64,000 bases of DNA. Source: Eledone cirrhosa. Its lineage: Eukaryota. The stretch is from assembly GCA_964016885.1 (NCBI GenBank), contig OZ024741.1:383718001-383782000 (forward strand), read 5' to 3'. Shown here piece after piece: positions 14,949 to 64,000 of this stretch. A program made the position numbers and the translations under genes. Under the pieces are notes generated by a model. That model did not search any database and was not told where the DNA came from. It saw nothing but the letters and a program-made list of their open reading frames with translations. The stretch's first letter is position 1; each line of letters opens with the position of its first letter.

Positions 14949-15730
14949 CTTCATTCTTGCTCTTTTGTTGGCATGTAAACAGAACTGCAAGCACTAGTGT
15001 TTCTGAGTATCACCCTTCATCAGTACAGCTCACTGTTCACCTACCAACTGATGAAAGGTGATACCCAGAAACATTAGTGTCTGCAGTAATGTTTACATGC
15101 CAATAAAAGAGCAAGAATGAAGGGTTCATTCTACTGACATGGCTATAAAAATGAAGTTTGTTTGTATAATTGCAAACGAATCGAATGTTATTATTAATAT
15201 TCGAAAAAAATAAAGTACCAGTAATGCACTGGGTAATTACTGGCCTTGTGCCTAAATTAGAAACAATTATTAATATTCGAAAAACTCAGATTACATTTAT
15301 TGTATTCAGCTATGTAGAGCGAAAATTTCCTTTTTTTATTTAATGTGGCAAAGCCAGCCATTTATAGCTCGTATACAGGAAACTGACTGACCAGTCTGCT
15401 GATATGCAAATCTGGCTGATCAGTGGATCTGCTAATATGCAAATCTGACTGATCAGCCAGTCTGCTAATATGCAAATTAGGCCGATCAATCACTTTAGAA
15501 AATAGCATATATTTTCACTAGCTCTGACACTTAGCAGGTGAACAGTGAGCTGTACTGATGAAGTGTGATACCCAGAAACATTAGTGTCTGCAGTTCTGTT
15601 TACATGCCAACAAAAGAGCAATAATGAAGGGTTCATTCTACTAACATGGCTATAAAATGAGGCTTGTTTGTATAATTGCAAACGAATCGAATGTTATTAT
15701 TAATATTCGAAAAACTCAGATTACATTTAT
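14949..15730 (+). mobile_element. HHR-bearing non-coding element: ~431 nt unit present ~1.4 times, plus an inverted arm at 14949-15042
   Basis: CTGATGA...GATACCCAGAAACATTAGTGTC at 15048 and 15555; 507 bp spacing includes a 76 bp SINE-tail insertion with duplicated TTATTAATATTCGAAAAA; ends in (TA)n. Confidence 0.8.
15547..15596 (+). ncRNA. Minimal type I hammerhead ribozyme motif
   Basis: GAGCTGTA-CTGATGA-AGTGTGATACCCA-GAAAC-ATTAGT-GTC-TGCAGTTC; 8 bp stem I with G-U pairs; the copy at 14982-15031 (-) has stem II GGGT/ACTC but a GCT triplet. Confidence 0.75.
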
Positions 15731-15831
15731 ATATATATATATATGTAGAAGTTCTATTTAAATTGTTGGGATACAGCAAGCAAATATTTTTATAACTGAT
15801 ATAAAGCACTCAACAAATTATTGGAGTAAAA

Positions 15832-16460
15832 ATACGATATATTAACAAATGGAAACTATATTTATAAAACCATATTTATTTCATTATACATATTTCAAGA
15901 ACATCAAGTTAAATTATGGTGTGCTTTCATCAGATAAAATATAATATAGATCAGTTTTATAAATAAATATTGACATACCCTTAAAGAATGCGTCCATTTC
16001 TTTTACTATTATGCAAATTAGTGTCGGATATTTTTAAATCACAGTAGATTTAAAATAAGCCGTTGGGGTATGGAGAAAGGGAATTGTTTTCTTATTTTCC
16101 TCTTAGAGTTTGCCCTTTTTTCTCTTTTTTCTCTTTTTTCTCTTTTTTCTCTTTTTTCTCTCTCTTTTCTTTCTCTTTCTCCATACCCCAACGGCTTATT
16201 TTAAATCTACTGTGATTTTAAAATATCCGACACTAATTTGCATAATAGTATAAATAAATTTATAACCCCACTATCCGGGAGCTTCCAAAAGAAATGATCG
16301 CATTATTTTAAGTGTATGTCAATATTTATTTATAAAACTGATCTATATTATATTTTTTCTGATGAAAGCACACCATAATTTAACTTGGTGTCCTTGAAAT
16401 ATGTATAATGAAATAAATATGGTTTTATAAATATAGTTTCCATTTGTTAATATATCGTAT
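15832..16460. mobile_element. Head-to-head inverted HHR element (arms 15832-16079 and 16175-16460)
   Basis: Arms are reverse complements around a pyrimidine-rich spacer; TA tracts on both sides. Confidence 0.8.
16351..16415 (+). ncRNA. Hammerhead ribozyme motif (mirror copy 15877-15941 on minus)
   Basis: TATTTTTT-CTGATGA-AAGCACACCA..TGGTGTCCTT-GAAAT-ATGT-ATA-ATGAAATA; ~9 bp stem II. Confidence 0.7.
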
Positions 16461-60182: not shown

Positions 60183-61284
60183 ATCACCTTGACTGACCAG
60201 TCTATCGGGCGTCCATTCGGCGCTGCTGGTCACATTCCTCTCTGGATCGTGCTTTCCTCATCTATGTAGTCCCAATCGTATTCCGAAAATCGTAACTCCA
60301 CCTTCGTGGAGGCTTTCCGAGTGGTCGTTTCCGCTCGCGTGGGTACCACTCGGCAAGTGCGCGGGTCCACCGATTATCGGTGAACCGGGCGACGTGTCCA
60401 GCCCATCTGAACTTTCTGCGCATATATTCCATGACGTCCCTCACGCCGGACTTCTGCCTGATGATTTCGCTCCTGGTGTGCTCTCACAAAGAGATTCCTA
60501 GCATTGATCTCTCCATGGCTCTTTGATCCATTACCAGCCTCTGCTCTTCTGCCTTCGTTGGAGCCCAAGTTTCACTGCCATATAACATTGCAGGTAAAAC
60601 TGTGCTAATGAAGAGGTTAGCGCCGGTGGTCTTGTCCAACCTCCCCTTGAGCACATCCCTTATGCCGTTGAACTCCTTCCATCCGGCCCTTACTCTCCGC
60701 GAGATCTCACGCTCAATGTCTCGGCGCATGTTCACTTCTTGTCCTAGGTAGACGTATTCCTCCACCTCCTCTATTTCATCACCGCCAACCACCATTCGAC
60801 TTGTTGGCACGTTGTCGGACCGCATGAACTTCGTTTTCATGCGGTTTATCTTGAGCGAACGAAAGAGTACAAGATGCCTCTTTGCGTCGCGGTCGTAGAC
60901 TACGAGAAAGCCTTCGACAGCGTCGAAATCAACGCAGTGCTGAACTCGCTGCAGAGGCACGGATTCGAGGCGCAATATGTTCAACTGCTCAGGGACGCGA
61001 GTTATGGATGCACCACCGACATAGCTCTTCTGTCATCATCCGTACGAGTGCCGGTCGAGAAGGGTGTGAAGCAAGGTGATACGATCTCTCCAAAACTTTT
61101 CACAGCGTGTCTTTAGCAGATCATCAGAGGCATTGACTGGCAAGGCCGTGTCAACATCAACGGCGAGATACTTACCCACCTCCCTTTCGCTGATGACATC
61201 GTACTCATCGCTGAAACCACAGATCTGCTTCAGACCATGCTGACGCAGCTCGACATTAAAAGCTCTGCAGTAGGCTTCAAGATA
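60183..61284. mobile_element. 5'-truncated RTE LINE with inverted 5' segment (60183-60854 minus; 60855-61284 plus)
   Basis: Plus: DYEKAFDSV, GVKQGDTISP, FADD...VGFKI; minus: LKINRMKTKFM, YVYLG, RWAGHVAR. Confidence 0.88.
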
Positions 61285-62249
61285 TATATGTATATATATA
61301 TATATATATATATATAAAATATATTTAATTAAATATTTAGCTCTGTAACTTACATAGAGCACGCTTCATTCCATTGACTTTTTCAATTTTCAACGGAAAC
61401 TTCAATACTTATATATATATACATATATATATATATATATATAGTAATAATAATAAATTTGAAGACTAAAATCCAAAGAGGGCTCGATAAGGATAAATAT
61501 ATATCAAATATATAAGAACCGTAGGGCAAATATTTATTAAAATAACAGATTAAAGTTTAAGCAAAGAATCGCTGCTTTCACCCTTAACGGGTTCTTAAAT
61601 AATAATCAACTGTGAAAATTGTAAACTTGACTGTCACCACAGCATATGAACCTGAAGATTGCGAAAGCGTATAAAGTACTTGTTCAATTAACACTTAACA
61701 TTTAATATTTTACCATACTATTTCATTATAATATCATTATAATTTTAAAGGATTGTAAATAAAACGTGTATATCAGACACATTTGGAATTCCTTTTATTA
61801 ATATAATCTTCTATACACAATCATACACACCCGTGTATATTTATTTATATATATATATATATATATATATATATATATATATATATATATATATATATAT
61901 ATATATATGTGTGTGTGTGTGTGTGTGTGTATGTGTGTGTATGTGTGTCTGTAGTGTTTGTGTGTAGTGTGTGTGTGTATATGTGTATATATATATATAT
62001 AAATATGTGTGTATATATATATGTATATATATATATATATATATATATATAAATATATATATCATATATTTATATATATATATATATATATGATTATCAA
62101 TATATGGAAAAGAATGAAACGAAATTTCTTATACATACTTATATATATGAATACATATATATACATATGCATATATATACATATGCATATATATATACAC
62201 ATATATATATACTTATATATATATACATATATATATATATATATATGTA

Positions 62250-64000
62250 TATATTAAGTGTAATGAATTCTTTTACAATGAAATTAGCTCAAAGAAAGAA
62301 ATATTTCTGAGCCGTATAAAACATTTAAATATAAATTAATATATATGATGAAACACAAATACCAACATATCTGTAATTATATTGTAAAAGAAAATTTAGT
62401 TAGCTAGAATGAAGTATACTAATTATAATATTACAGTCTGCCCATATCGATTTAAAATAATAAATCAACAAAGACAAACAGTATTGCCAAATGGCCTTGA
62501 TGTTTAGACACATTTAAATTTCAAAATAAAACCTGTTCCGTAGATAAGTTTAAACTTTAAAATCCAAATATGTTTCGAGATAAAAGAAAGTGTAAGGATA
62601 TCATGTCCTGCTCTCTTCAGTAAACATCCAGGAACACATTGATATGCTTCACTTCCAAATATTTTAAAAGACTGTGTAACGCACATGGTTTACAGTTTCT
62701 AGCTAGCCTCATAACCGTACTGCTAGAAATAACAGCCGTATATATGAGGCTACTTTCAGCTCAACCTAAGGAGCAATAATATTAAGTGGAATGAATTCGT
62801 TTACAATGAAATTAGCTCAAAGAAAGAAATATTTCTGAGCCGTGAAAAACATTTAAATATAAATTAATATATATTATGAAACACAAATACCAACATATCT
62901 GTATTTATATTGTAAAAGATAATTTAGTTAGCTAGAATGAAGTATACTAATTATAATATTACAGTTTGCCCATATCGATTTAAAATAATAAATCGACAAA
63001 GACAAACAGTATTGCCAAATGGCCTTGATGTTTAGACACATTTAAATTTCAAAATCAAACCTGTTACGTAGATAAGTTTAAACTTTAAAATCCAAATATG
63101 TTTCGAGATAAAAAAAAGTGTAAGGATATCATGTGCTGCCCTCTTCAGTAAACATCCAGGAACAAATTGATATGCTTCACTTCCAAAAATGTTAAAAGAC
63201 TGTGTAACGCACATGGTTTACAGTTTCTAGCTAGCCTCATAAACGTACTGCTAGAAATAACAGCCGTATATATGAGGCTACTTTCAGCTCAAACTAAGGA
63301 GCAATAATATTAAGTGGAATGAATTCGTTTACAATGAAATTAGCTCAAAGAAAGAAATATTTCTGAGCCGTGAAAAACATTTAAATATAAATTAATATAT
63401 ATATGATGAAACACAAATACCAACATATCTCTATTTATATTGTAAATGAAAATTTAGTTAGCTATAAGGAAGTATACTAATTATAATATTACAGTCTGCC
63501 CATATCGATTTAAAATAATAACTCAACAAAGACAAAGAGTATTGCCAAATGGACTTGATATTTAGACACATTTAAATTTCAAAATCAAACCTGTTCCGTA
63601 GATAAGTTTAAACTTTAAAATCCAAATATGTTTCGAGATAAAAAAAAGTGTAAGGATATCATGTTCTGCTCTCTTCAGTAAACATCCAGGAACAAATTGA
63701 TATGCTTCACTTCCAAATATTTTAAAATACTGTGTAACGCACATGGTTTACAGTTTCTAGCTAGCCTCATAACCGTACTGCTAGAAATAACAGCCGTATA
63801 TATGAGGCTACTTTCAGCTCAACCTAAGGAGAAATAATATTAAGTGTAATGAATTCTTTTACAATGAAATTAGCTCAAAGAAAGAAATATTTCTGAGCCG
63901 TGTAAAACATTTAAATATAAATTAATATATATTATGAAACACAAATACCAACATATCTGTATTTATATTGTAAAACAAAATTTAGTTAGCTAGAATGAAG
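62250..64000 (-). repeat. Tandem array of 528-530 bp units (at least 3.3 copies, runs off the window), one HHR-like motif per unit
   Basis: AAATTAGCTCAAAGAAAG at 62281, 62809, 63337, 63867; starts directly after a TA-rich tract. Confidence 0.93.
62542..62629 (-). ncRNA. Hammerhead-like motif (also 63070-63157 and 63600-63687)
   Basis: GGATGTTTA-CTGAAGA-GAG...CTC-GAAAC-ATATTTGGATTTTAAA-GTT-TAAACTTATCT. Confidence 0.7.

Follow-up and report, generated by a model that had tools for sequence, protein, structure and literature searches.

The 64,000-nt stretch of DNA analysed here (the window) contains five short non-coding units with hammerhead ribozymes, and the copies scored across the genome support their being dispersed, self-closed, protein-free families with a Penelope-like insertion footprint. 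We regard these units as very probably non-LTR retrozymes of the animal type. The RT/GIY-YIG protein of Hydra-clade Penelope-like elements (PLEs) is likely to copy them in trans, presumably starting at a hairpin that both kinds of element have in common. The elements of the window are listed in Table 1.

Table 1. Elements located in the window. "Core" gives the first base of the hammerhead core with its strand; A is one of the two fixed insertion ends.
Feature	Positions	Strand	Details
431-nt non-coding hammerhead unit	14949..15735	+	ends in (TA)n; short inverted arm 14949-15050, core 15023-; fragment 15047-15208, core 15048+; SINE-like piece 15204-15270; full unit 15266-15735, core 15555+, predicted cut after 15588
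Hydra-type family B 3' end	15742..16460		two back-to-back arms: minus 15742-16083, core 15933-; plus 16171-16460, core 16359+
Hairpin directly past end A of family B	15808..15827	-	ACUC...UU-GAGU
688-nt unit	30876..31631	-	minus arm 30876-31532 (core 31252-, predicted cut after 31184) and short plus arm 31535-31631
Hydra-type family C 3' end	31756..32753		two arms; long-stem-II hammerhead, core 32327+; SINE-like insert 32465-32675
Long hairpin directly past end A of family C	31859..31928	-	GCUC...UU-GAGC
657-nt unit	32770..34161		two arms placed back to back, meeting at 33454; cores 33230-, 33809+
Hairpin directly past end A of 657 unit	33514..33549	+	GCUC...UA-GAGC
PLE family E 3' end	42494..43070	-	GIY-YIG C-terminus (stop 42738), 3' UTR, hammerhead core 42559-
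Hydra-type family D 3' end	43088..43355	+	hammerhead core 43158+, loop III mutated here
Hairpin directly past end A of family D	43269..43293	+	ACUC...UU-GAGU
Hydra family A insertion	43594..50661		two 5'-truncated back-to-back arms, minus 43594-46965 and plus 47465-50661, 99.1% alike; RT then GIY-YIG; in-frame stop 48757-48759; 1.5-kb 3' UTR; cores 43854-, 50576+; tail ~170 nt, left arm only
Hairpin directly past end A of family A	43732..43765	-	GCUC...UU-GAGC
688-nt unit, single arm	58386..58979	-	core 58876-, predicted cut after 58809; hairpin A 58463-58498
469-nt unit, 458 nt here	59159..59990	-	longer than one unit; core 59455- with complete stem III; cut predicted after 59382; split by SINE-like insert ~59707-59911; hairpin A 59670-59691
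Further hammerhead family	61606..61835	+	core 61652+, carrying mutations at this locus; other copies have an intact core
Start of seamless 527-nt unit array	62251..64000	-	cores 62620-, 63148-, 63678-; hairpins 62287-62312 and 62759-62774

Ribozyme sites and their carriers

The hammerhead motifs are real. A both-strand scan of the kind proposed in the first-pass annotation, using a strict type I descriptor for stems I, II and III, gave 12 matches in the window against a mean of 0.1 (maximum 2) in 60 block-wise dinucleotide shuffles. Five listed sites fall outside this descriptor and were judged by eye: a mismatch adjoins the core at 15555 and 16359, stem II is about 95 nt long at 32327 (above the limit of the scan) and short at 42559, and loop III is mutated at 43158 in the window copy, other copies being intact. 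Every site listed in that annotation is a type I core or a recognisably decayed one; its minus-strand coordinates were off by tens of bases, and it lacked three further motifs (15023-, 15048+ and 61652+). Of 163 Rfam matches, the 150 that were listed included TA-repeat noise and no hammerhead family. Self-cutting of the RNAs is predicted: as a monomer for 469, as dimers for 431, 657, 688 and Hydra A, where loop III is palindromic, and poorly for 527. The 469 ribozyme is predicted to fold as a complete monomer with a full stem III, and in stems I and II the 657 and 688 ribozymes differ by paired changes that maintain the fold; taken together, these observations suggest that ribozyme cutting has been selected.

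Half of the ribozyme sites turned out to be ordinary Hydra 3' ends. PLE 3' ends had been noticed before, but they belong to five families and not to two, because the sites at 15.9/16.4, 32.3 and 43.15 kb are of this kind as well; the hammerheads concerned are those at 16, 32.3, 42.5, 43.15 and 43.8/50.6 kb. Elsewhere in the genome, an ORF lies directly upstream of the hammerhead 3' end in 12 of 25 family C loci, 13 of 20 family D loci and all four long family B loci (about 1.5 kb upstream in the longer copies of B). The (ATT)n into which one ribozyme had seemed to run lies inside a PLE 3' UTR that carries a SINE-like insert, and the copy itself ends in (TA)n at 32753.

Family A has a seamless closed unit of 4,199 nt with one hammerhead and 36,112 first-look candidates in the genome. 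An 832-aa open frame is present in 14 of the first 30 candidates listed, and loci differ by a median of 18 mismatches per 2.5-kb ORF; the family is very young, with many intact ORFs. In its protein of 832 aa, which was compared by eye with Hydra-1_Obim, the RT motif lies at aa 367 and a GIY-YIG-like motif spans aa 710-727. A CxCX5C linker at aa 691 occurs in all four intact copies examined (and in family B), and RWR at 51, DKT at 136, CxxC at 789 and CxH at 817 in three of the four. Pfam detected no PLE RT in this protein and GIY-YIG only at E 0.019. The hammerhead near the 3' end and insertion into (TA)n are likewise Hydra traits. Judged by motifs and domain order, family A, the one family tested in full, is a member of the Hydra clade and not a Naiad, as the first-pass annotation had supposed: according to Craig et al. 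2021 (PMC8557442), Naiads carry an N-terminal endonuclease, a DKA motif and no canonical hammerhead, none of which fits family A, where the endonuclease follows the RT. We consider it very improbable that the carriers of the units are Naiads or another TA-targeting PLE clade. Naiads do target (TA)n and leave the same inverted, tailed insertions, and octopus Naiads are listed in the supplement of that paper; however, every coding PLE piece traced here matches the Hydra protein, the hairpin of the units is common to the Hydra families present, and the same source describes cephalopod Naiads as long-inactive remnants.

Five dispersed families without proteins

On measurement, the units are 424-441, 458 (family about 469, 11 nt being missing from the window copy), 523-530, 656-657 and 684-688 nt long, in agreement with the first estimates of about 431, 458, 529, 655 and 690 nt. 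They had been called unrelated, which does not apply to the 657 and 688 units (75% identical). The longest sense ORF is below 70 aa in each, GC is 0.30-0.36, and there is no LTR. Fold z-scores of the ribozyme strand range from -2.0 to -8.1, from 12 shuffles only and with internal repeats in 431 and 527. Each family has 1,482-4,622 first-look candidates dispersed over many contigs, about 40 of the best being scored per unit, a selection that favours full units. Upstream of the cut site, full-length copies continue into their own 3' end. Head-to-tail tandems with at least two hammerheads are clear for 527, 657 and 688, occur at one locus for 431, and for 469 are seen across SINE-like inserts only. 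The 527 array continues beyond the window to window-equivalent 88603, comprising 26,353 nt or 50.0 units with (TA)n on both sides; the core pattern is retained in only 31 of 49 of its monomers.

The units could instead be plain pseudo-LTR fragments of unsampled coding PLEs, or ordinary satellites with a chance ribozyme, and such an origin does apply to three of the sites (16, 32.3 and 43.15 kb); scoring the best candidates may also have flattered full units. For the five units, however, it is very improbable: they close on themselves in seamless tandems, their copies are dispersed, and 70 unselected arms of the 469 unit have no ORF link. The first-pass annotation had asked whether copies are always attached to PLE ORFs; in the genome-wide search this was not so for any of the five. 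No Hydra ORF was contiguous with a unit in the sampled loci, and the tblastn Hydra matches near units (1/30 for 527, 2/30 for 688, 2/30 and 2/61 for 469, 5/25 for 431, 3/25 for 657) are, judging from their positions, separate neighbours; only L024 is arguable. The fragment or satellite reading is largely refuted for 469, 527, 657 and 688, and the refutation is weakest for 431, which has few longer-than-unit copies. Derivation of the units from Hydra UTRs was also considered, and no parentage was found by sequence: nothing alignable is shared beyond the hairpin, families C, D and E being partly covered in this comparison.

Two fixed ends and a bulged hairpin

Units and Hydra elements alike insert into (TA)n as back-to-back arms whose 5' truncation points vary. 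That the 3' side runs into (TA)n in nearly every case, as first described, holds for 527 (30/31 scored ends), 657 (24/26) and 688 (26/29), and less strongly for 431 (22/33) and 469 (9/19). The survey of start points in genome copies, which had been suggested earlier, revealed two fixed ends per element, A and B, both 3' of the ribozyme. Measured from the predicted cut, they lie at +236/+305 in 527, +293/+394 in 657, +307/+427 in 688, about +155/+234 in 469 and +47/+214 in Hydra A. Of 38 two-armed inserts scored for 657, 688 and 469, 29 join A with B and nine are ambiguous, none being AA or BB; for 527, read by hand, all 12 join A with B. This pairing matches the two internal start sites and the extension on two strands that were demonstrated in vitro for a Poseidon PLE (Frangieh et al. 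2024, PMC11167929). The start sites share TA microhomology with the (TA)n target.

A bulged RCUC...GAGY hairpin begins 3-9 nt past 14 of 17 ends (13 of 16 by script plus end B of 469, read separately, with end A of 431 counted as a miss); this range of distances was set once the data were known, and some of the ends are not independent, coming from related elements (657/688; B/D). The background is 19 of 244 TAT sites, and 5 of 266 in antisense. The variants GCUC/GAGC, ACUC/GAGU and AUCUC/GAGAU preserve pairing through compensatory changes, and end B of family B, read after the hairpin idea arose, fitted. Among six published Hydra consensus sequences (supplement of PMC8557442) inspected by eye, three carry the hairpin (Hydra-2_Amil, Hydra-1_Ajap twice, and Hydra-2_Ajap), two match partly, and Hydra-1_Obim does not. 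The exact hairpin is missing from the 431 unit and from the 61.6-kb family. The hairpin probably marks the point at which the Hydra enzyme begins to copy; being common to units and Hydra families, it names the probable carrier of the units. In such a mechanism, the Hydra RT/GIY-YIG protein would bind the RCUC...GAGY hairpin and nick both strands of the TA tract; one arm would be primed at A, its partner at B, and copying would proceed backwards through the ribozyme.

Circular or uncut template

We lean towards a template that is a cut-and-ligated RNA circle, which would stem from multi-copy loci such as the 50-mer, over an uncut transcript longer than one unit. The same carriers and enzyme could also work with no circles at all, copying uncut linear RNA longer than a unit, with the ribozyme idle or trimming other transcripts and arrays arising by later unequal crossing-over; to this we give somewhat less than even credence. 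In the Poseidon study cutting was dispensable and uncut RNA was the main template: in vitro, insertion was normal with mutated ribozymes, and reads ending at the cut were absent (PMC11167929). Eight of nine Xenopus retrozymes failed to cut in vitro (bioRxiv 10.64898/2026.07.22.740005). Most insertions in our data have one ribozyme per arm, from which no circle is possible by double cutting, and a full-length family B copy (L224) starts exactly at end A and comprises one unit plus tail.

The arrays would be compatible with such a route. Their monomers are overall not more alike than separate loci (within-array versus between-locus divergence of 3.2% versus 3.7% for 657, 4.1% versus 5.1% for 527, and 6.1% versus 8.6% for 688, the last from four pairs only), and near-identical internal pairs stand beside pairs that are 2-5% diverged. 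The 50-mer averages 4.55% with such near-identical pairs scattered along it; long arrays therefore need no rolling copy. Against a route with no circles stand the apparently selected ribozyme folds of 469, 657 and 688, the circles that Cervera and de la Pena 2020 (PMC7229834) describe for retrozymes of coral, mussel and axolotl, and one Hydra A insertion of 2.35 seamless units whose two ORFs show no difference from each other and at least five from the other loci sampled.

Among the 70 unselected arms of 469, 44 reach the predicted cut, 42 pass it and two stop within 10 nt of it (4.6 expected), so there is no pile-up; read-through of this kind would fit a circular or an uncut template. Ten of the 469 arms have 5' ends at -310 to -329, one full turn from end A, but this seeming cluster was rejected because seven of them border a SINE-like insert at that site, and apparent 5' ends at +14 are an artefact of the deletion in the window copy.

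More tentatively, the hairpin might be a clade-wide start signal of the Hydra RT that occurs twice per unit, sets both insertion ends and is the sole requirement for mobilising unrelated ribozyme circles; the 4.2-kb Hydra element would then itself move as a coding ribozyme circle, with retrozymes as its defective satellites.

Relation to known systems

The class is already published: non-LTR retrozymes moved by Penelope elements, of up to 972 bp. The enzyme that spreads them, its recognition and PLE copying from circles were proposed between 2014 and 2020 but not shown (PMC4209133, PMC7229834). The present genome supplies a Hydra family that is young and retains intact ORFs, together with five short templates, start points at base level and a candidate recognition hairpin. 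Our literature search, which reached few subscription texts, found no description of this hairpin or of octopus PLE hammerheads.

The metazoan retrozymes of PMC7229834, for which PLEs were named as likely carriers, are likewise tandem repeats of non-coding, GC-poor units that each carry one type I hammerhead, and range from dimers to large multimers (up to 62-mers in coral). They differ in length (about 170-400 nt versus 431-688 nt here) and in that their circles were shown, whereas circles of the present units are proposed from DNA sequence. We describe two-armed inverted (TA)n inserts with two fixed ends; the words "inverted" and "microsatellite" are missing from the main text of that paper. 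Li, Clavereau and Pollet 2026 (bioRxiv 10.64898/2026.07.22.740005) likewise regard retrozymes as non-autonomous PLE derivatives, with consensus sequences of 51-972 bp and at most seven repeats in most families, hundreds in some. The claim that our units exceed known ones in size thus stands only against the tested circles and not against this range. The preprint concerns Xenopus and builds on co-occurrence and pLTR similarity; in the parts accessible it includes no mollusc, insertion anatomy or hairpin. For the units described here, no PLE parent can be aligned, and the link is made by footprint and hairpin.

The Hydra clade of PMC8557442 agrees with family A in its C-terminal GIY-YIG, in the RWK-like, DKT, CxCX5C, CxxC and CxH motifs, and in the hammerhead, the (TA)n target and the inverted, tailed insertions. 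Family A is longer (4.2 kb with a 1.5-kb 3' UTR, published Hydra elements being generally below 3 kb), and, unlike them, very abundant and young. Tails are about 70-170 nt here versus 30-40 nt for PLEs in that paper, whose main text does not mention the hairpin. Poseidon_Ac (PMC11167929), which belongs to another clade, similarly has two internal start sites that define the tail, cuts and extends both target strands, and needs sequence 3' of the start. Its starts lie in an AC-rich stem-loop within the ORF and, in the main cluster, are separated by 7 nt, whereas those described here precede an RCUC/GAGY hairpin in non-coding sequence, with TA microhomology.

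Hammerhead Carriers

The hammerheads recognized by the first-pass annotation are real type I motifs, confirmed by a regular-expression scan and by a strict descriptor in which all three stems (I, II and III) are required. Matches to the latter number 12 in the window, and 60 shuffles averaged 0.1. Five of the annotated sites lie outside this descriptor and were accepted by eye. Stem III is short and palindromic in most of them, a form thought to be active as a dimer according to the available text of PMC4209133. (TA)n tracts are abundant in the window, which is part of a contig of 416 Mb in an animal genome totalling 3.0 Gb. 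Resemblance to Hydra-1_Obim hints at an octopus-like host.

Searches of the same genome separated the carriers into two classes, closed units and 3′ ends of coding elements. Five units, named by length in nt (431, 469, 527, 657 and 688), are self-closed: upstream of the ribozyme, their own 3′ end is reached after 424–441, ~469, 523–530, 656–657 or 684–688 nt. No sense ORF longer than 68 aa is present in any of them, and no attached ORF of Hydra, a type of Penelope-like element (PLE), was found in the own-genome loci examined, one of which (L024) is arguable; the earlier proposal of non-coding hammerhead units holds for these five. Each family yielded 1,482 to 4,622 first-look candidates, the best ~40 of which were scored. 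The 527 array extends 26,353 nt (50.0 units) with TA tracts on both sides. At another locus (L008, upstream of 1203), a 527 copy is fused directly to 431-family sequence, which suggests template switching between families.

In the 469 hammerhead, stem I has 8 bp and stem III has 10 bp, and the hammerhead is also the fold of lowest energy for that motif's own sequence. Identity between the 657 and 688 units is 75%; stems I and II are preserved between them through changes on both sides, and a possible loop–loop pairing is retained in both, as judged by eye from an alignment that slips by one column. The predicted cut triplet of the 527 unit is GUU.

The remaining sites are 3′ ends left by truncation of coding elements; half of the hammerhead sites are plain Hydra ends. 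Immediately upstream, an ORF that matches the Hydra protein is present at 12/25 loci for the 32.3-kb site, 13/20 for the 43.15-kb site and all four long loci for the 16-kb site; at the 42.5-kb site, the GIY-YIG end is present inside the window. Intact copies have an 832-aa frame, RT then GIY-YIG, with the motifs RWR, DKT, CxCX5C, CxxC and CxH, a set matching that of Hydra in section 11 of PMC8557442. Naiads, as far as the available text of that paper describes them, have the opposite endonuclease/RT order and no canonical hammerheads. The first-pass assignment to Naiad-type elements was not borne out, since RT precedes GIY-YIG, the motifs are those of Hydra and the hammerhead is canonical; judged from sequence, the PLE of this window belongs to Hydra. 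Family A is young: it has 36,112 candidates and retains the full frame in 14 of the first 30 listed, and its ORF shows a median of 18 mismatches among 22 copies. At one family A locus, 4,199-nt units, each with a single ribozyme, follow one another seamlessly for 2.35 repeats at 99.97% identity; therefore, the coding element and the small units have the same closed layout.

Features of the window and their coordinates
Feature	Position	Strand	Remarks
PLE family A	43594..50661		hammerhead 3′ end
PLE family B	15742..16460		hammerhead 3′ end
PLE family C	31756..32753		hammerhead 3′ end
PLE family D	43088..43355	plus	hammerhead 3′ end
PLE family E	42494..43070	minus	hammerhead 3′ end
E and D 3′ ends	42494–43355	minus, plus	head to head, short TA stretch between
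527 array	from 62251
Duplication in 527	62513–62583 and each unit		degenerate, 36 nt; stem III and stem I 3′ strand, after predicted cut
61.6-kb family	61606–61835		extra hammerhead family
Weak hammerhead-like cores	59040–59089; 37160–37204	minus	stems unconvincing; possibly decayed copies of other families
SINE-like repeat	22133–22341; 32465–32675; 59710–59911; 27623–27816		~210–230 nt; 12 matches in the window, including shorter pieces; presumably resembles octopus CORE-type SINEs; recurs in ATT/TTATAA tracts, both in 431 and 469 units (at end A or close to it) and in family C UTR
Repeat family	2631–3307; 9845–10712; 14206–14842		93–95% alike over 415–660 nt; tandem and inverted pieces; (CATA)n tracts at borders; hammerhead not detected
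Two decayed LINE-type elements	3772–7198; 54953–57139		APE endonuclease and RT; 74% alike
RTE-like RT fragment	60200–61280		two inverted pieces flanked by TA tracts
Palindrome	12924–13298		375 nt; arm identity 91.5%; TA-rich centre

Insertion Ends and a Shared Hairpin

Non-coding units and Hydra elements have in common 5′ truncation, (TA)n at the end and back-to-back arms. In both classes, insertion ends group at two sites past the predicted cut (ends A and B), and two-armed insertions pair one end of each kind: this holds in 29 of 38 scored cases (657, 688 and 469 units), nine being ambiguous and none having the same end on both sides; 527 insertions, scored by hand, do so in 12/12. Many copies of the 61.6-kb family (L256–L274) fold back at one short palindrome ~45 nt before the ribozyme, so that the inserts are palindromes with a nearly constant length of 430 nt; forms with more upstream sequence also occur.

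In copies that continue, CTC starts 3–9 nt past each fixed end and pairs with a GAG lying 10–65 nt beyond it; a two-base bulge usually precedes the GAG. This hairpin is found at 6/6 Hydra ends with known continuation and at 8/8 ends of the 469, 527, 657 and 688 units; its exact form is absent from both 431 ends (A has a one-mismatch variant) and from the 61.6-kb family, giving 14/17 overall. The background is 19/244 TAT sites, true ends counted in, and 5/266 on the other strand. The 3–9 nt spacing range was set post hoc and some ends are related; collapsing these leaves 11/14. Two independent checks were made: end B of family B fitted, and among six published Hydra consensus records inspected by eye, the hairpin is clear in three (coral Hydra-2_Amil, sea cucumber Hydra-1_Ajap, twice, and Hydra-2_Ajap), partial in two and not seen in Hydra-1_Obim. 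Further hammerhead 3′ ends related to families B/D (L150, L153, L166 and L167), with ACUC hairpins, lie in neighbouring TA tracts. On the RNA, the hairpin lies to the 3′ side of the start and so is left uncopied at that end, which would fit a role as a binding site.

Circle or Uncut Template

All 70 arms of the 469 unit that match an exact 24-nt pattern, unselected for length, were compared with the predicted cut: 26 end >10 nt short of it, 42 run past it and 2 end at +2. Stops near the cut (2 observed, 4.6 expected from the preceding rate) are not in excess, which argues that the usual template is not a cut linear monomer. These arm ends are compatible with both a ligated circle and an uncut transcript longer than the unit. 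The latter fits the divergence of array monomers, about as large as that of separate loci, the single ribozyme in most insertion arms and the in vitro use of uncut RNA by Poseidon_Ac (PMC11167929, available text). On the other hand, a circle is favoured by the complete fold of the 469 ribozyme, by the conservation of the fold between 657 and 688, by the identical Hydra units found in tandem and by the RNA circles shown in other animals (PMC7229834, available text). On balance, we lean slightly towards the ligated circle.

Relation to Known Systems

The feature is real, its class is already known and the clade first named for it was wrong. In the parts of these sources available, a PLE carrier for non-LTR retrozymes was proposed in PMC7229834, rolling copy of a PLE circle in PMC4209133, and a 2026 preprint (bioRxiv 10.64898/2026.07.22.740005) argued that retrozymes, with units up to 972 bp, are non-autonomous PLEs. 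Descriptions of two-armed retrozyme insertions, Hydra–retrozyme pairing or the hairpin were not found in the literature searched, the coverage of which is incomplete. The present analysis names a young candidate enzyme, locates the start sites exactly and adds the common hairpin; with these, the questions of carrier and of circle can both be put directly to the test. In the available text of PMC8557442, PLE insertions have a "tail at one end", to which the paired fixed ends of the units and Hydra elements correspond; for Poseidon_Ac, in vitro work attributed the tail to a pair of internal start sites, with both strands of the target being extended (PMC11167929, available text).
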